A stretch of DNA of 8,945 bases from a virus (lineage: Duplodnaviria > Heunggongvirae > Uroviricota > Caudoviricetes), in the IMG/VR virus record IMGVR_UViG_2585427729_000015, positions 1 through 8,945 of that record; one strand, written 5' to 3'. Below, one piece after another: positions 1-8,945 of the stretch. Below the pieces are notes generated by a model. That model was not told where the DNA came from. It made no database searches and was given only the letters and a program-made list of their open reading frames with translations. The first letter of the stretch is position 1, and every line of letters starts with the position of its first letter. A program made the translations under genes and the position numbers.

Positions 1-380
<380 letters not shown>

Positions 381-679
381 TAGACAAAGACACTATCACG
401 CAGTGGATACGAAGTGGACGACTTCAGGCCGCAAAGATAAATCCAGATAAACCTAAAAGCCCATATCGCATTTGCAAGTCAGACTGCATTGCGGCGCTTA
501 AGTCTGTAAGACACAATAGCGCGGTGAATGCGGTTGATGTGCAGGAGGTTAAAGCATGTCAATCAAACTACGCGGTGGCACGTGGCACTGCGATTTCGTC
601 GCGCCAGATGGATCAAGAGTTAGACGCTCACTTAAAATATCGGACAAAAGGCAAGCGCAAGAATTTCACGATCGTCTGA
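381..679 (+). pseudogene. Excisionase / AlpA-like DNA-binding gene, 5'-truncated by the IS insertion; 3' end overlaps the integrase start
   Basis: Frame of track ORF 308-679 translates from 381 as ...TITQWIRSGRLQAAKINPDKPKSPYRICKSDCIAALKS..., resembling the helix-turn-helix of phage Xis/AlpA-type excisionases. No start codon or N-terminal helix remains because the IS terminus abuts at 380. Position immediately upstream of, and co-oriented with, the integrase is the canonical xis-int arrangement. Confidence 0.5.
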
Positions 680-1716
680 AAGCAGAAGCGTGGAGAGTAA
701 AAAATCTCGGGGAATCACCGAAAAAGCTATTCAAGGAAGCCTGCATACGGTGGCTGCGTGAGAAATCGGATAAGAAGTCCATTGATGATGACAAGAGCAT
801 TATATCGTTCTGGATGTTGCACTTCAGAGAAACCATTCTCTCTAACATAACAACAGAAAAAATAATGGAGGCGGTAGACGGGATGGAAAACCGCCGCCAT
901 CGCCTGAACTGGGAGATGAGCCGGGACAGGTGTTTGCGGCTTGGCAAGCCAGTGCCGGAGTATAAACCAAAGCTGGCAAGCAAAGGAACGAAGACGCGGC
1001 ATCTGGCAATACTTCGCGCTATTCTCAATATAGCTGTTGAATGGGGATGGCTTGACAGGGCGCCCAAAATATCAACACCACGCGTTAAGAATGGACGAAT
1101 CAGATGGCTTACAGAGGAGGAATCGAAGCACCTGTTTGCAGAAATTGCTCCTCATTTCTTCCCTGTGGTCATGTTTGCAATCACGACAGGCCTTCGCCGT
1201 TCCAACGTTACAGACCTTGAGTGGTCACAGGTCGATCTGGATAAGAAAATGGCATGGATGCACCCTGATGAAACAAAAGCTGGCAATGCGATCGGAGTTC
1301 CTCTTAACGAAACCGCATGCCAGATATTAAGAAAACAGCAGGGGCTCCATAAGAGATGGGTATTTGTCCACACCAGACCTGCCTACCGAAGCGACGGAAC
1401 AAAAACAGCAGCGGTAAGGAAGATGAGAACCGACAGCAACAAGGCATGGAAGGGAGCGTTAAAGCGGGCGGGCATTAGCAACTTCCGCTTCCATGACCTG
1501 AGGCATACCTGGGCAAGCTGGCTGGTTCAGTCCGGTGTCTCTCTTCTTGCACTTAAAGAGATGGGAGGATGGGAAACTCTCGAAATGGTTCAAAGATACG
1601 CCCACCTTTCAGCCGGGCATCTCACCGAGCACGCGAGCAAAATCGATGCGATTATAAGTCGCAATGGCACAAATACGGCACAAGAGGTGAACGTGGTTTA
1701 CTTAAATGTGAGGTAA
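556..1716 (+). CDS. int: Tyrosine-type site-specific integrase (phage integrase family, P22-like)
   Basis: 386 aa with GGAGG Shine-Dalgarno at 543-547. Catalytic signature residues are visible: box I arginine in TTGLRRSN, HxxR in FRFHDLRHTWASWL, and catalytic tyrosine context EMVQRYAHL. The gene ends 14 bp before a tRNA-Thr 3' fragment (att core). Confidence 0.9.
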   Translation: MSIKLRGGTWHCDFVAPDGSRVRRSLKISDKRQAQEFHDRLKAEAWRVKNLGESPKKLFKEACIRWLREKSDKKSIDDDKSIISFWMLHFRETILSNITTEKIMEAVDGMENRRHRLNWEMSRDRCLRLGKPVPEYKPKLASKGTKTRHLAILRAILNIAVEWGWLDRAPKISTPRVKNGRIRWLTEEESKHLFAEIAPHFFPVVMFAITTGLRRSNVTDLEWSQVDLDKKMAWMHPDETKAGNAIGVPLNETACQILRKQQGLHKRWVFVHTRPAYRSDGTKTAAVRKMRTDSNKAWKGALKRAGISNFRFHDLRHTWASWLVQSGVSLLALKEMGGWETLEMVQRYAHLSAGHLTEHASKIDAIISRNGTNTAQEVNVVYLNVR

Positions 1717-1730
1717 TTTATTGATTTAAA

Positions 1731-1776
1731 TGGTGCCGATAATAGGAGTCGAACCTACGACCTTCGCATTACGAAT
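1731..1776 (-). tRNA. tRNA-Thr(CGT) 3' fragment, 46 nt (anticodon loop to CCA end); att core copy, not an intact tRNA gene
   Basis: Reverse complement of 1731-1776 is ATTCGTAATGCGAAGGTCGTAGGTTCGACTCCTATTATCGGCACCA, identical to my recollection of the 3' 46 nt of E. coli thrW including the CGT anticodon and CCA end. Sequence beyond 1776 does not continue into an anticodon stem, D-arm or acceptor 5' strand. Confidence 0.75.
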
Positions 1777-2523
1777 TATAAGAATCCGCTTCTAATTCAA
1801 AGTATTACCCCATCAACACTGTGCTCACACGTCCCACCACATCAAAACATGTAAAGCCTTGCAAGCCATTGTGAGGCCTTATGTGTCTCAGTTTTGTCCC
1901 ACCTTGTATTATGACTTGCATAGCCAATGAAGATAAACGTGACGACAAACAGCGCAGCAGTCTTCTTTTCTTTCACACTTTCCCCAATCAGCATACATAC
2001 TTTCTACCATAACTGTAGTGAATGTCTGTTATGAGCGAGCAAAAGAGATTCAATTACCGGGGAATTACTCCGACATAAGCTCTCCCAGAAACACCGGAAC
2101 AGCGATTCGCATATTCTCTTCTATACTTTCAGTCTGACCGGCTGGAGATTTCATAGCAAGAAAATGGATGCGCCAAGACCTATGCGGGAAAGAGGCTGAG
2201 GAAATAATTGCCGATAGCACTGTGCCCGCCGAAAAGTTAATCTGGCACGCAATGACGCGCGTCCTTGGGGCATCAGGAATCAGAGAGCCAACTTAACAAC
2301 CCATTATATATTATTTAACAGGACCGTTACATGTACAAAGTTCAATGATTAGTGATTCTGTGACGCCACATACAACCTAAGCCCCTGATATAAAACCAGT
2401 CTATGCAACACCTAAAAATCATATATGATAGGGTGATAAGTCAACGCGCAGTATAAAAATCAAGCTAAAAAATGCTTTCAGCATAGTGAATCTATTTCAC
2501 ACTACATAATTAAGGATGAAAAA

Positions 2524-3369
2524 ATGACTGCACCAGTAATTAGTTTTATCAATATGAAAGGTGGGGTTGGTAAAACAACTTTATGCGTTGGGATTGCTGA
2601 GTTTTTAGCCAACCATATGGGGCGCAAGGTTCTAGTTATCGATATTGATCCTCAATTTAATGCCACTCAGTCCTTAATGGGGCATTATGATCGAGTAGAA
2701 GAATATATGACTGCCCTTCGCCCTAATAATCAAACCATTCGAAAGATTTTTGAGCTTCCAAATTCATTAATGGAAGATGAAAAGAAAGTGACACCAGAAC
2801 AGGTCATTACTAAAGTTTCAGACAATCTTGATATTATCTTAGGTGATATAAACATTATCTTTGATACTAACCAAGAGGGTATTAGAATAAAAATGTTGCG
2901 TAAATTCATCACCGAAAATGACTTAAAAGAAAGTTACGACTATATCTTTATCGATAGCCCCCCAACAATCTCATTATTTACAGATACCGCACTCCTTGCT
3001 TCTGATTATTATCTTACTCCGGTTAAAATTGATCACTACTCGGTGCTTGGAGCAAGCAGTTTAAATAGCGTTATAAGAAATATGCGCACACATCATGAGA
3101 AAGAAATCAAGCAAGTCGGTTACATTTATACAAACACTGATGCTGAAATGACCAATAAAACAAGGGAAATTAAAGAACAATTCGAAAACCATACTCAATT
3201 TACAAATTTTTATTTCTTTGAAAATCAATTAACCTACGTGCGTGATTTAATGGTAGGTTATCAAGGAAATATTCCTTCTTGTTATTCAAAGTCACGCCAA
3301 GATATAGAAAAGATCTGTAACGAATTTATTAACAGAGTGGCTCACTTGGAAGGTAACACAAATGAATAA
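2524..3369 (+). CDS. ParA/MinD/Soj-family P-loop ATPase (deviant Walker A)
   Basis: 281 aa; N-terminal ISFINMKGGVGKTTL matches the deviant Walker A KGGxxK[ST]; VLVIDIDPQFNATQ (A' box) and YIFIDSPP (Walker B) are present. AAGGA Shine-Dalgarno 7 nt upstream of the ATG. Visibly AT-rich, roughly one-third GC by eye. Confidence 0.85.
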   Translation: MTAPVISFINMKGGVGKTTLCVGIAEFLANHMGRKVLVIDIDPQFNATQSLMGHYDRVEEYMTALRPNNQTIRKIFELPNSLMEDEKKVTPEQVITKVSDNLDIILGDINIIFDTNQEGIRIKMLRKFITENDLKESYDYIFIDSPPTISLFTDTALLASDYYLTPVKIDHYSVLGASSLNSVIRNMRTHHEKEIKQVGYIYTNTDAEMTNKTREIKEQFENHTQFTNFYFFENQLTYVRDLMVGYQGNIPSCYSKSRQDIEKICNEFINRVAHLEGNTNE

Positions 3370-3760
3370 ACAATTAATTAAAGCGCTCAATAAAGCTAAC
3401 AATATGCCCATGACCAAAGAAAACTTCTTAGGCTTGGTAATTATGTTGATTCTTTCAAAAGAGGTTTTTAGATCAAATTTTGATGTTAGTAAATTTATTA
3501 ACAAAACCTTCAAAATATCTTTTTTGAATTATGCTGTACGGTCAAGAACTTTGATGTGCGCTAAAATTTGCAAACATATTAATGAATTAAGTGAGAATGA
3601 CATAAAGATGGCTTATACGCATTTCTTAAACAACATTAACACATTAGACATTATTTTTAATGATGCAAATAAAACAAGCCAAAAATCCACATCTAAAAGC
3701 AAGCATGCTATAAGGAATTTAAATATTTGGATTAATGCAAATAAAAAGGAAGAAGAATAA
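3362..3760 (+). CDS. Hypothetical protein (132 aa), translationally coupled to the ParA-like gene
   Basis: Start ATG overlaps the upstream stop by 8 nt; GGAAGG Shine-Dalgarno 8 nt upstream. Lys/Asn-rich AT-rich coding sequence with no recognisable motif. Same strand and composition as its neighbours. Confidence 0.6.
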   Translation: MNKQLIKALNKANNMPMTKENFLGLVIMLILSKEVFRSNFDVSKFINKTFKISFLNYAVRSRTLMCAKICKHINELSENDIKMAYTHFLNNINTLDIIFNDANKTSQKSTSKSKHAIRNLNIWINANKKEEE

Positions 3761-4425
3761 TGCTCACGCAGGATCCCTTCAACATTGGAAGAGATGTAAA
3801 TTATTTTAGAGCGGAGGTGCAAAAGCACCTCAGAACCACTGATGAAATAAACAAATCAGTATCAATATTTAGGCAAATAAGTCTTTGTAATACAATTTTA
3901 AGTCACAATCCTAATCTAAATCACTCTTCTTATATAAAAGGTTTTATATATGATACCTTAAACTCCTTAATTGCCATTATAAAAAAAAGAGAACGGTATC
4001 TCCAACTGAACTTCCGCTCAATGGTGGAGCATGTGGCCAGAATAAGCCTCAATAAGAACTACAATGGTGGGGATTTTGACCAAACTGTACGTCGTAGAGA
4101 CTTTGACTTCTTAAAAGCCCAACAAGTCGATGAAGGCTGGTCTTATTTACATAATGTCTATATCAACGCCTGTTATTATGTTCACTCCTCCCCCCAAGCG
4201 AACCTAAATGTTACATCAACATTTATATCACTTATGGAGGGAGATTGTAATTCAACACAGCATAAAATGGTGAAAAAACTTCATGAGGTAGTATCGGCGC
4301 TGATGAGAATCATTATAAAGTATTATCATCAGCATATCTCAAACATTTTCTTTAGAAACAAAAAGGATTTAGAGAAAATAATGGGAAAAAGCCTTTATTC
4401 ATATTATACCAGCTTAGACAATTAA
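3760..4425 (+). CDS. Hypothetical protein (221 aa), translationally coupled (TAATG overlap); contains a possible HEPN-like Rx4H motif
   Basis: Start ATG shares one nucleotide with the upstream stop (TAATG at 3758-3762); AAGGAAG Shine-Dalgarno upstream. Contains RSMVEH (residues 86-91). No other recognisable domain by eye. Confidence 0.6.
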   Translation: MLTQDPFNIGRDVNYFRAEVQKHLRTTDEINKSVSIFRQISLCNTILSHNPNLNHSSYIKGFIYDTLNSLIAIIKKRERYLQLNFRSMVEHVARISLNKNYNGGDFDQTVRRRDFDFLKAQQVDEGWSYLHNVYINACYYVHSSPQANLNVTSTFISLMEGDCNSTQHKMVKKLHEVVSALMRIIIKYYHQHISNIFFRNKKDLEKIMGKSLYSYYTSLDN

Positions 4426-4462
4426 TTCTCTCATATTCATTGCGTAGAGCATAAATATCTAT

Positions 4463-4958
4463 CTAACCACCTAAAATGCCAGAAAATCTAGTTGTATACC
4501 GGTGCGAAAATATCTCGCGTTTCATCTGCCACTGCTGCTGAATGCCCTGCCCAGCGAAACAGAGTGTTTCCTTCCCGTCTTTTGCGTTGAGGTGCTCCAG
4601 CACGCTCATTAACTTTTCGCTCCCAGGACCCAGCGCGTTATCGTCGAATAGGTTAGGGCATGCTCTGACTGAAGAAGTCCCCCAGCATTACCCCGGCTTT
4701 CTGATATCGGTGTCCGTCTTTCCATATTGCATCCAGACTCCCCGTTGCTACTGCAATGATATCCCGACTGTCCTGTGTCGGGATGAGGAGCTTCACCGAC
4801 GCGTTGTTACAGTAGTACGACTCGTTCAACGCAAAGGGTATCGTGTAAAACCGATGATGACACTGCCGGCAATCAGCACTGACGTCAGCAAACGTGAGAA
4901 AGAACAGATAAGCCGAACGATTTAGGAAATGTTTGAAGAGACTGATATGTGGATGGTT
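4463..4958 (-). pseudogene. umuC-like (Y-family translesion polymerase) 3' remnant, 5'-truncated and frameshifted
   Basis: Minus-strand translation gives ...DSRDIIAVATGSLDAIWKDGHRYQKAGVMLGDFFSQ in one frame, ending at a stop at 4654-4656, then in the +1 frame ...NLFDDNALGPGSEKLMSVLEHLNAKDGKETLCFAGQGIQQQWQMKR...RYTTR... to a stop at 4463-4465. This matches my recollection of the UmuC C-terminal region. There is no in-frame start and the N-terminal roughly 300 codons are absent. Recognisable similarity is clearest for 4463 to about 4870. Confidence 0.55.
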
Positions 4959-5355
4959 TCAGTTTAAACGCCTTGAACCGTCATATTACCTAAGTACAAT
5001 CCGCTGTGACTGGCAATCATTCAATACTTGCACTATCAAAAGTGCATCAGCCAACCGCAGCACGTCTTGCATACGACCTGTCTGCGGTTTCAATCACCTC
5101 TCACCACCAGTCCCATCAATAATAATTAAACAGCGCCTAAACAAAATAAATAACAACAAGTCAACAACCTCGACAGGATGCCGATGGGATGATGAAGAGA
5201 TAAGAAAGAATAACTAGTAAAGCCCTAAAACGTCAGCGTTCAGACGCGTTTTTTACTTAACCGGTAACAAATACGTTGTATCATAGCAACATAAAATGAT
5301 TGTTCTAAATCAGATTAACTCCTCACTTTTGTACAATGTCGCTTACAGGTATACC

Positions 5356-7245
5356 ATGAAATCCGAGACGCTAACTGTCCAACAACTTTTTCAAGACCGC
5401 CGACAATACTGTGTTCCATTCTATCAACGTGCCTATGTATGGACTCAGCGAAACCAATGGTCAGCTCTACTGGAGGATATCCTAGAGAAAGCACAATCCC
5501 GGCTCTCGGGTACAAAACCAACTCCCCATTTCCTTGGTGCAGTTGTACTGGAACCTCAACCAAAAAAAGGATTATTCGGTGTAGATTCCATACATATTAT
5601 TGATGGTCAGCAACGATTGACCACTCTTCAATATGTTCTGGCATCCATCCGATTAGCATTACGTGCAACAGATCTTTCCAACTTAGAGCCTCTCATTTCG
5701 TCTTGCCTGAAAAACTCAAACGAAGACACAATGCGAAATAAAGAAGTAGAGCGCTTCAAACTGTGGCCAACTTTTCGGGATCAAACTCATTTTATTCAAA
5801 GTTTTAATGTTGAAAATATTGACGATATCCGGAATGTATTCTCTGATAGTTTCACGCAGCATGGTACGTTGCGTAAGCATTTTAATCACCCGCCATCACT
5901 AGAAGCATTATGTTTTTTTACTGAAGCCTTTATAAAGTGGATTAAAATAGAAAATCACTCACCACGAGAAAATGCTGTAGCATTAATTGAGGCTGTCTTG
6001 ACGGATCTGAAACTAGTAAGCATATTTCTCGAGGCTGAAGATGACGCTCAAATAATTTTTGAAACATTAAATGGCAGAGGTGCGGAACTTCATGCCACAG
6101 ATCTTATTCGCAATTATATTTTTATGTGCGCTGAACATGAAAATATTAATGCTGTTGAATTATATGAGAATGAGTGGAAGATCTTTGAAGATACGTACTG
6201 GTCAGAAAGACAACGTCGTGGTCGTATTAATAAACCACGCATGGAGTGGCTAGTGCATGCAACATTGCAATCAGAAAGGCAACGTGAAATCGATCTGTCT
6301 CGTCTTTACAATGAGTATCGTGATTATGTAAGTAAGGACTTGCCTTCACAACGAGCAGATCTGCAAGTAAAGCGCCTCAAACAATATGCATCACAATATA
6401 AAGAATTGGTTGGTGGTTTTGGCACAACCCCCATCTCACACTTTGGACATCGCATCGCAGCCTATGATGTGACGACACTTTATCCGCTTGCTTTGTTCAT
6501 TTCGATAGCTAACATCGCCGATGATGAGAAAGCAGCCATGTATAATGATCTTGTCTCCTACGTAGTACGAAGAGCCGTATGTGGCCTGACGCCAAAGAAT
6601 TACAACAATGTATTTATGAATGTATTGCGGCACTTGTCTAAAACAGAAATTTCCAGTGTTGAGTTACGTAATATCCTCAATAGCTTAAATGGCGAAGCCT
6701 CACGTTGGCCTGGGGACTCAGAATTTCTCAACGCTTGCATCAATGCTCCACTTTATCCTGGCAGGCTCGACGCACCGAAAATGCGCTCAATGTTAACGGA
6801 ACTTGAAAGAGAACTTTGTCGCCAAGTGAAGACAGAGAAGCCTGATGTTCCAAATCTTTCTAACCTCGATATCGATCATCTTATGCCTCAAAGTTGGTAT
6901 TCCTGTTGGCCTCTCGAAAATGGTCATATGGTGACAAATTCAGATGCTACGGTATTGAACCAAATTGTTCTGTCTGGAACCGATCTTACCCCAGAACAGC
7001 TACTGGTAAGGAAACGGCAACAAGCGATAACTACGTTGGGAAATCTAACTTTGCTTAACCTTAGCGTAAACCGTTCTGTTCAGAATGCTGTATTTCTGAA
7101 AAAACGTGATGCTCTCATCGTCCACACCAATCTACGACTGAACATTCCACTTATAGTTAAGGATAAATGGGATGAGGATGAAATCCTGGAGCGGGGTAAA
7201 AAGTTGGGGGAAATTGCATTGAAAGTATGGCCAAAACACGATTAA
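5356..7245 (+). CDS. DUF262 (ParB-like NTPase/nuclease) + DUF1524 (HNH-like) protein, GmrSD-family candidate type IV restriction endonuclease
   Basis: N-terminal YCVPFYQRAYVW and IIDGQQRLTTL (DGQQR) are the hallmark of DUF262; C-terminal NLDIDHLMPQSW and LGNLTLLNLSVNRSVQN resemble the DUF1524 His-Me finger. Start placed at the ATG at 5356 (AGG 6 nt upstream); an in-frame ATG at 5296 with no Shine-Dalgarno would add 20 residues. Confidence 0.8.
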   Translation: MKSETLTVQQLFQDRRQYCVPFYQRAYVWTQRNQWSALLEDILEKAQSRLSGTKPTPHFLGAVVLEPQPKKGLFGVDSIHIIDGQQRLTTLQYVLASIRLALRATDLSNLEPLISSCLKNSNEDTMRNKEVERFKLWPTFRDQTHFIQSFNVENIDDIRNVFSDSFTQHGTLRKHFNHPPSLEALCFFTEAFIKWIKIENHSPRENAVALIEAVLTDLKLVSIFLEAEDDAQIIFETLNGRGAELHATDLIRNYIFMCAEHENINAVELYENEWKIFEDTYWSERQRRGRINKPRMEWLVHATLQSERQREIDLSRLYNEYRDYVSKDLPSQRADLQVKRLKQYASQYKELVGGFGTTPISHFGHRIAAYDVTTLYPLALFISIANIADDEKAAMYNDLVSYVVRRAVCGLTPKNYNNVFMNVLRHLSKTEISSVELRNILNSLNGEASRWPGDSEFLNACINAPLYPGRLDAPKMRSMLTELERELCRQVKTEKPDVPNLSNLDIDHLMPQSWYSCWPLENGHMVTNSDATVLNQIVLSGTDLTPEQLLVRKRQQAITTLGNLTLLNLSVNRSVQNAVFLKKRDALIVHTNLRLNIPLIVKDKWDEDEILERGKKLGEIALKVWPKHD

Positions 7246-7265
7246 TGCAATTAATAAAATGATTA

Positions 7266-7293
7266 TAGCGGCCTTACATTAGTAAGGCCGCTA
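7266..7293. terminator. Perfect 12-bp stem / 4-nt loop hairpin; possible intrinsic terminator, orientation unclear
   Basis: TAGCGGCCTTAC-ATTA-GTAAGGCCGCTA at 7266-7293, 21 bp downstream of the GmrSD-like stop. U-rich flank is present on the minus-strand side (complement of AATAAAATGAT), not clearly on the plus side. Confidence 0.4.
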
Positions 7294-7495
7294 CTCACTA
7301 TTAAATCCTTTAATTTGCAATAAGAACAGCAGTGTCAGCCCTAGGTTTCGGACTTTGTACCGCTTATCTTGTCTTCAAAAATCAGCTCGCATCCTGCACA
7401 GCTCAACGCATTACGTTGTAGATCGGTGTTCTGGTCATTTGTTGATACGCGTACATAGCCAATAAGCATGGTAGCGCCCCCTGACAAAAGCAGGA

Positions 7496-7846
7496 ATGAT
7501 GCCATTTGCTCGTTATTTCTGCATTTTCATAAATGTTGGTTTAAGAGCAAGCGGGCAGTACACCGATAATTTGTTATTTACAGGTCCTGATGGTCTTAAG
7601 ATTCAGGTGTTTCGCCGGACGCTCGCAAATTTGACTACTGTCGGTGTAGTAAATTCTGTGCCAGTGACTTTCCCTGTCCCGTTCCCTGTTAATTGCTGGG
7701 GCGTTTTTTCTACCAAATTAACATGGGTTCAGATAACTAACTCATGCGAGTGGGTAAGCAATACAGGATTTACCGCTCAGGTCATGATGAATATTGCTGT
7801 AAATACAAACACCTCAGACGCTATGTTTTTAGCTATAGGATATTAA
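7496..7846 (+). CDS. Tail-fibre C-terminal (variable) segment, probably a silent or truncated alternative distal tail-fibre coding block
   Basis: Frame is open only from 7475; no convincing ribosome-binding site for the ATG at 7496. Stop at 7844-7846 lies 1 nt before the ATG of a tail-fibre-assembly gene, the typical stf-tfa junction. Sequence is Thr/Asn/Val/Pro-rich (VTFPVPFPVN). Confidence 0.45.
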   Translation: MMPFARYFCIFINVGLRASGQYTDNLLFTGPDGLKIQVFRRTLANLTTVGVVNSVPVTFPVPFPVNCWGVFSTKLTWVQITNSCEWVSNTGFTAQVMMNIAVNTNTSDAMFLAIGY

Positions 7847-7847
7847 T

Positions 7848-8288
7848 ATGAATCGTTTTGTGTTCAGTCCATCTGAGTCCCGTTTTTATGCCATCGAGTG
7901 GCAGGCTGATTATGTTGATAATAATTGTTGGCCGCATGATGCCATTAACGTTAGTGACAGCATTTATTATGAGTTTTCCGGCACTCCCCCTACAGGTAAG
8001 CAACTTATAACTTTAAATAACATGCCATCATGGGGTGATATTCCTCCACCTACACGAGAAGAATTAATTGTCACCGCTGATGTCGAGAAGCAAAAAAGAA
8101 TAGATTTAGCCAATGATTACATGAACGGTAAGCAATGGCCTGGTAAAGCAGCTATTGGTCGTCTGAAAGGTGAGGAACTGGCACAATATAATTTGTGGCT
8201 GGATTATCTGGACGCACTGGAGCTGGTCGATACCGCCAGTGCGCCAGATATTGAATGGCCTACGCCTCCGGCAGTTCAGGCCAGATGA
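7848..8288 (+). CDS. Phage tail fibre assembly protein (Tfa/U-like chaperone)
   Basis: 146 aa with the characteristic C-terminal region ...YNLWLDYLDALELVDTASAPDIEWPTPP shared by lambdoid/Mu/P2 tail-fibre assembly proteins. AGGA Shine-Dalgarno 7 nt upstream. Confidence 0.75.
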   Translation: MNRFVFSPSESRFYAIEWQADYVDNNCWPHDAINVSDSIYYEFSGTPPTGKQLITLNNMPSWGDIPPPTREELIVTADVEKQKRIDLANDYMNGKQWPGKAAIGRLKGEELAQYNLWLDYLDALELVDTASAPDIEWPTPPAVQAR

Positions 8289-8862
8289 CATCCGGCGCGG
8301 TGCTCGTATCTGTTGCTGTCACCGCGTCAATGTAATCCAGCACAGTGTTAAGGCTGGTTGTTTCTGCCTGCGTCAGTTTACGTCCGGCCTGCAATTTCAG
8401 CTGAATCAGACTGATTGAATCCATTACAGTATCAATCAGTGACTGGCGCTGTGCTTCTGCTGCATCTACTGCGGCGCTATGCTGTGCTTCGGTATCCGTC
8501 ACCCATTTCTCACCATCCCATTTATCGTATGGCGTTAACGGGGCGATAGTGGTTGTATTATCAGGGTAATCACCCGGAACTGTGATTTCTTTTGATTCTC
8601 CTGTTTCGGTGCTAAAGACGATTTCACCGCGATAGTCTGGCACATATTCCCATGAGTTAAAATCTACAGATCGGCAGATTGCATAACCAGCTTTGTATGT
8701 GACAGGGGCATCTAAACAGGAATATGCAGGGATACCGACACCAACGGCAAGATATTCAGTTGATGTGGAAATATATTCCCGTGTTTCACCATCATAGTTA
8801 TAGACGGTAATATTCCCCGCCTTTGTAGCAATAAACTCGCTATTTAATACAGCGTTATCCAT
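8260..8862 (-). CDS. Phage tail fibre assembly protein (Tfa/U'-like), convergent with the plus-strand tfa
   Basis: 200 aa; ...PYDKWDGEKWVTDTEAQ... and C-terminal ...DAVTATDTSTAPDVIWPELPEA match the Tfa family pattern. GAGGG Shine-Dalgarno upstream; start ATG overlaps the stop of an upstream minus-strand ORF (TAATG). Confidence 0.8.
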   Translation of the reverse strand: MDNAVLNSEFIATKAGNITVYNYDGETREYISTSTEYLAVGVGIPAYSCLDAPVTYKAGYAICRSVDFNSWEYVPDYRGEIVFSTETGESKEITVPGDYPDNTTTIAPLTPYDKWDGEKWVTDTEAQHSAAVDAAEAQRQSLIDTVMDSISLIQLKLQAGRKLTQAETTSLNTVLDYIDAVTATDTSTAPDVIWPELPEA

Positions 8863-8945
8863 TATGCAGCCCTCACGATATAGTTAAATGCAATATTCCG
8901 TGGACGGGTTTCATTTATCCCATATGCTGTTGTTCTCTGATTCCC
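8862..8945 (-). CDS. 3' end of a minus-strand tail-fibre gene (partial; continues beyond the window end)
   Basis: Open frame across the final 27 codons (...GNQRTTAYGINETRPRNIAFNYIVRAA-stop) with its TAA overlapping the ATG of the downstream tfa. Too short for independent confirmation. Confidence 0.4.
   Translation of the reverse strand, partial: GNQRTTAYGINETRPRNIAFNYIVRAA

Follow-up and report, generated by a model that had tools for sequence, protein, structure and literature searches.

Comparison of the DNA analyzed here with E. coli genomes and phage records revealed that the 46-nt tRNA fragment at positions 1731-1776 is very likely the internal seam of a two-element tandem array at the E. 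coli thrW tRNA-Thr(CGU) gene. The DNA, hereafter the window, is the whole 8,945-nt stretch of IMG/VR record IMGVR_UViG_2585427729_000015 (positions 1 to 8,945). The fragment combines three characteristic features of an internal junction: (i) the attachment core is partial, (ii) mobile DNA lies on both sides of it, and (iii) its two arms come from different elements. A preliminary description of the window had proposed two elements in tandem at one tRNA-Thr; comparison with close relatives supports this arrangement, which we infer rather than read directly.

The tRNA fragment is a thrW attachment core

On the minus strand, positions 1731-1776 read ATTCGTAATGCGAAGGTCGTAGGTTCGACTCCTATTATCGGCACCA, which is identical at 46 of 46 positions to nucleotides 31-76 of annotated thrW tRNA-Thr(CGU) genes, including the gene at L004 13387-13462 and thrW of K-12. 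The fragment covers the anticodon loop with CGT, the variable loop, the T arm, the 3' acceptor strand, and CCA. The preliminary description had allowed that the fragment might prove degenerate when aligned to authentic thrW; the alignment shows none of this. The core pattern has one match in the window and none in 200 shuffles, with up to three mismatches allowed.

The fragment had been described as a minus-strand 3' half of tRNA-Thr with its CCA end 14 nt from the stop codon of a plus-strand integrase, and this geometry is exact: the stop codon of the integrase gene, here called int1, ends at 1716, and the gap to the CCA end is the 14 nt at 1717-1730. This spacer constitutes the integrase-side att arm and is identical to the sequence between int1 and intact thrW in five other loci (L004 and L009-L012). 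The 5' half of the tRNA is indeed missing. Positions 1777-1806 differ from it at 23 of 30 positions, so that the 5' 30 nt are absent; ARAGORN found no complete tRNA in the window, and the Rfam search of the window gave no tRNA match at E <= 1. The full 76-nt cloverleaf of a functional tRNA-Thr is not present at 1731-1776.

The published 46-bp att core of SfI, SfII, SfV, SfX, and P22 is the same 46 nt, letter for letter (PMC3636060), and a tyrosine integrase adjoins the fragment and points at it, which is the arrangement of a P22/SfX-type thrW site. The fragment at 1731-1776 is a P22/SfX-type thrW attachment core rather than an arbitrary half tRNA.

The left element is a decayed thrW prophage

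The first 380 nt of the window (minus strand) are the end of an IS3-family insertion sequence, with OrfA at 6-344 (PF01527, HTH_Tnp_1, 6.9e-14); an 'IS3 family transposase' is annotated at the same place in NZ_CP027550. The insertion sequence terminates with ...CA at 379-380, and relatives without it begin matching at window position 381. A xis-like helix-turn-helix gene (381-679, plus strand) starts at this boundary and lacks its start and first 16 codons, as determined by alignment to the intact helix-turn-helix gene at L003 19952-20299; its counterpart is annotated as an excisionase in phages mEp213 and HK542. The loss of these codons to the IS3-family end at 380 bears out the earlier claim that the left element is damaged by an insertion sequence. 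The int1 gene (556-1716, plus strand) is intact, encodes a 386-aa tyrosine integrase (PF00589, 3e-34; phrog_1), and reads toward the core. It shares ~98.3-98.5% nucleotide identity with the int genes of mEp213, HK542, mEpX2, and SfX, and 725 blocks of the assembly collection list exactly this 386-aa protein.

Several genomes (L004, L009-L012) match window positions 1-1776, including the IS junction, with 99.9-100% identity; in them, the IS3-cut xis/int1 is followed by 14 nt, a complete thrW, and proA. These are thrW loci of related strains with the left element only, the kind of locus to which the preliminary description had pointed for comparison. It had also anticipated a further core copy bounding the left element, and such a copy is found in a relative, strain 2015C-4136CT1 (NZ_CP027550): the IS3-int1 element ends there ~19.6 kb off at a second perfect 46-nt core. 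This distal core (L025 6200-6245), which corresponds to DNA outside the window, adjoins an integrase relic and yagU. Since the IS3-int1 unit is found with its own ends in other genomes, the left element exists alone as an ordinary decayed thrW prophage. It is best explained as a decayed lambdoid prophage with an mEp213/HK542/SfX-type integrase.

Two loci (L007 8385-11221 and L008 8385-11221) contain an int1 element of which only ~2.7 kb is left, from a distal core to int1-thrW. Beside yagU, both lack the pao operon and yagP, which suggests a deletion reaching from the prophage into the chromosome.

The int1 gene is perfectly intact despite the IS-destroyed excisionase gene, and it might therefore be kept because its product still acts in trans on the array's cores. 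We regard this as very unlikely; if true, the decayed int1 element would be a resident 'array manager' shuffling, deleting, and capturing neighboring prophages and satellites at thrW.

The right part matches an SfV/SfI-like prophage

The 263 nt that follow the core (1777-2039) form the far-side att arm of the right element, which is conserved in several different thrW prophages. This arm is common to the SfV-like prophage of L003 and the NleB/NleF prophage of L005 and L014, with divergence after 2039, and it is absent from free phages with the int1-type integrase. From 1662-1730 (the start differs by record) to 7542, the window shares ~99.5% identity with the far-end portion of an SfV/SfI-like prophage that is present in many E. 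coli (matching core-cargo loci L001 and L015-L024). The genes to the right of the core are phage-derived, in accordance with the prophage-like cargo described there initially.

The cargo includes a ParA-like ATPase (2524-3369, plus strand; Pfam AAA_31 and CbiA; phrog_164) and two overlapping plus-strand ORFs of unknown function (3362-3760, phrog_6264, and 3760-4425, phrog_7540). The same trio is found at the far end of the thrW prophages in L001 and L015-L024. No convincing PADLOC match was obtained for the ATPase or its two partner ORFs. At the att-proximal accessory end, the trio has a type IV restriction enzyme as its neighbor, and it is ~99% conserved in many strains; it may be an uncharacterized accessory or defense operon. 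The restriction enzyme (5356-7245, plus strand) belongs to the GmrSD family of type IV, modification-dependent enzymes (PF03235 and PF07510) and matches the full PADLOC mREase_IV profile with 1437 bits. The only Rfam match in the window falls inside this gene: positions 6517-6591 resemble the archaeal C/D-box snoRNA sR41, scoring 26 bits where the gathering score is 54, and this sub-threshold match was dismissed as chance.

Pseudogene debris is scattered through the cargo, comprising an SOS-response peptidase gene fragment (~2155-2295) and fragments of umuC (DUF4113) and dinI (4462-4924). The debris is conserved and persists in the complete W21 prophage as well.

The last part of the window carries a truncated invertase fragment together with tail-fiber and tail-fiber-assembly cassettes (7347-8862, with ORFs at 7496-7846 and 7848-8288 on the plus strand and 8260-8862 on the minus strand; Pfam Gp53-like_C and Caudo_TAP). 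The invertase fragment is annotated as a recombinase fragment in L001, and relatives run on into Mu-type baseplate genes. The match to relatives breaks at ~7542 and resumes at window positions 8109-8917 with ~90% identity, and the tail-fiber stretch is inverted in L015 (16144-16549) and L016 (14632-15439). Given the inverted matches, the truncated invertase fragment, and the opposed tail-fiber-assembly genes, the segment at 7347-8945 looks like a Gin/Cin-type invertible tail-fiber cassette frozen through loss of the invertase.

Two relatives reveal how this prophage ends on its other side, beyond the DNA covered by the window. In strain W21, the cargo prophage is ~41 kb long. Leaving the core, it passes through genes for the Mu-type baseplate, tail, head, and terminase and for lysis and immunity and reaches yfdRST, a helix-turn-helix gene, and a second integrase gene, int2, which is followed by 14 nt, intact minus-strand thrW, and proA. 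In strain 23CRST010 (L001), a 12-kb remnant retains both prophage ends, with an integrase and, again after a 14-nt gap, an intact minus-strand thrW ~12 kb away. The preliminary description had expected exactly such a pair on the right, a second integrase together with an intact thrW on the minus strand. The identity of int2 to int1 is only 56%.

The two arms of the core belong to different elements

The window was compared in a six-way alignment with genomes of the int1-thrW type and genomes of the yagP-core-cargo type. The match is with the int1-thrW type up to and including the final core base, and with the yagP-core-cargo type from the next base on. The core is identical in all six aligned sequences, and the match changes partner exactly at its two edges. 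These breakpoints and the anatomy of the segment are read from the sequences themselves, and both parental states exist in sequenced genomes. In free phages that have an int1-type integrase and an annotated attP, the similarity to the window ends exactly at 1776. A free-phage attP has both arms from one phage genome, and this is not what was found at 1731-1776; the stop of the free-phage match at 1776 argues that the junction is a hybrid of the att arms of two elements and no plain attP. Taken together, the comparisons support the core as a putative internal junction, in which the far-end junction of the right element is fused to the junction that the left element formerly had on its thrW side. 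When the surroundings of the core were searched for repeats that could be arm-type sites, nothing but short two-copy matches emerged, and these were not trusted.

Among 5,426 complete E. coli genomes, not one matches the window over 80% or more of its length, and none of the complete E. coli genomes contains a record of the IS3 junction joined to the ParA/GmrSD cargo arm. An exact scan with the 100-nt junction gave no matches in GTDB species-representative genomes and JGI metagenomes and two matches in IMG/VR. One of the two, and the sole identical contig in public collections, is UViG_2693429677_000014 (L028, 10.8 kb), which is 100% identical to the window over positions 1-7542 and extends 1.7 kb further on the left; the intact thrW and second integrase seen in W21 and 23CRST010 correspond to DNA beyond this contig as well. 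Exact-protein look-ups for int1 and for a 132-aa cargo ORF returned many contexts, none of them with the combination found in the window.

Proposed history of the array and alternative explanations

The identical IS3-cut int1 unit has different neighbors in different strains: the thrW 5' half and proA in some, the NleB/NleF prophage in L005 and L014 (both of which share window positions 1-2039), satellite-like elements in L006 and L013, and the ParA/GmrSD prophage in the window and L028. Because the same scar recurs with these different neighbors, the left IS3-int1 element is probably the older resident, and later newcomers would have entered at its attL.

One of the satellites beside IS3-int1 encodes a DUF6538-type integrase, and the other is P4-like with a primase, Ogr/Delta, and YoeB/YefM. 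The tRNA 3' end retained beside them is 19 nt long in L006 (11176-11194) and ~16 nt in L013 (~11176-11191), which suggests that other integrases target thrW via a much shorter core.

The following scenario is proposed for the array. The int1 element would have arrived first and become resident with int1 14 nt from intact thrW, and an IS3-family element would later have broken its excisionase gene, locking the element in place. A second phage, an SfV/SfI-like myovirus with att-proximal ParA-like and GmrSD cargo, would then have entered the same intact thrW, its own integrase, 56% identical to int1, presumably using the same 46-bp core. Recombination inside the core would have rebuilt an intact thrW beside the integrase of the newcomer and left the old tRNA 3' half behind, between the cargo arm of the newcomer and int1. 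Under this scenario, int2, thrW, and proA should lie past the right end of the window in the source strain, which should also contain the distal core.

A real array could also have been assembled in another order or by another mechanism: a ParA/GmrSD prophage might have been the resident and received the int1 element at its far-end core, or the array or half of it might have come with a large chromosomal segment imported by homologous recombination. Both arrival orders give one final map, the att arms and the core are common to many strains and would provide flanking homology for recombination, and the thrW region is highly mosaic among strains. We nevertheless consider these routes unlikely, since the identical IS3-cut xis/int1 lies directly at intact thrW in some strains and has elements of at least three other kinds as neighbors there in others, for which an older resident is the simplest explanation, and the laboratory precedent is integration at a tRNA-bearing attL (PMC3306764).

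It is extremely unlikely that one mosaic phage or episome, either non-integrated or located elsewhere, accounts for the whole segment as its attP region, with no tandem array involved. The order integrase, 46-bp core, and accessory genes is indeed the attP layout of SfI, SfV, and SfX (PMC3636060), a ParA-like gene lies close by, and the window is a short contig recovered from a collection of viral contigs. Against this, the xis gene is cut by the insertion sequence, and the identical IS-int1 unit is chromosomal beside thrW-proA in many genomes; moreover, the far-side arm differs in free phages with the int1 type, and the cargo arm is tied to a different, 56%-identical integrase in complete genomes. 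A plain attP was rejected, as the phage matches stop at window position 1776.

An assembly chimera, in which int1-core (beside the thrW 5' half) was wrongly joined through the 46-bp repeat to core-cargo (beside yagP), is hardly credible: the window does start within a repeated insertion sequence, as is typical of draft contigs, and both real junction types share the 46-nt core and a partly similar stretch of 69 nt, but the usual read and k-mer lengths exceed a 46-nt exact repeat, L028 repeats the junction at 100% identity over 7.5 kb, and equivalent integrase-core-prophage junctions occur in closed genomes (L003) and in a 1.16-Mb scaffold (L005).

Relation to known thrW elements

The closest counterpart of the proposed tandem array was obtained in the laboratory in Shigella flexneri, where SfI enters the attL of an SfX prophage already residing at thrW and forms a tandem array (Sun et al. 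2011, PMC3306764). Integrase recombination at the thrW core has been shown for related phages (PMC3306764, PMC3636060). The SfI + SfX lysogens and the window have in common the thrW gene, the 46-bp core, and the integrase type of the resident, with 98.3% nucleotide identity between SfX int and int1; in the Shigella lysogens, the newcomer enters the tRNA-bearing attL of the resident and an internal core is left between the prophages, as proposed for the window. Several differences separate the two cases: (i) the resident in the window is a decayed, IS-cut remnant, unlike the SfX resident, (ii) its newcomer carries ParA-like and GmrSD cargo, whereas SfI carries gtr O-antigen genes, and (iii) the event was observed in Shigella flexneri, whereas for E. 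coli it is deduced from the window. P22, SfI, SfII, SfV, and SfX have the same 46 nt with an integrase adjoining the core and pointing at it, as in the window; the core itself offers no difference, and only its arms, which in the window derive from two elements, are unlike theirs.

In E. coli K-12, the cryptic prophage CP4-6 occupies the same locus (proA-thrW ... yagP) as the relatives of the window, and its far end carries these 46 nt without a mismatch ('ptwF', NC_000913.3 297209-297254). The CP4-6 integrase, intF, is different from int1 and lies beside the distal copy, reading away from it. The distal copy in K-12 borders chromosomal yagP, whereas the core in the window borders a second element. 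In several records of int1-type phages, the attP annotation reads 'similar to thrW and ptwF'.

A ~70-nt frameshifted relic of an integrase 3' end is found between yagP and the distal core in K-12 (L029 ~3756-3830) and in L001 (6001-6068), and such a relic between yagP and the distal 46-nt core occurs in most strains. Thus, the 'bacterial' side of thrW is itself an old integrase scar.

The xis-int-attP module of the lambdoid phages mEp213, mEp043, HK542, HK446, mEpX2, HK75, and ECP1 is 98.1-98.5% identical to window positions 381-1776. These phages are free and complete and have an intact xis and another far-side arm, whereas the window contains an IS-cut integrase end only.

Elements stacked at thrW are already known, as are the locus, the core, and the integrase family, and two elements at one thrW are common and documented both in Shigella phages and in E. 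coli K-12; the present reading is correct but ordinary and is no discovery. Its consequences are mainly for annotation. The 46-nt fragment should be labeled as an att core, an internal attR/attL junction between two mobile elements, and not as a degraded tRNA, and the right-hand prophage, rather than the adjacent int1, should be named as the carrier of the ParA-like and GmrSD cargo. For the biology of the locus, the window illustrates how thrW gathers stacked elements.
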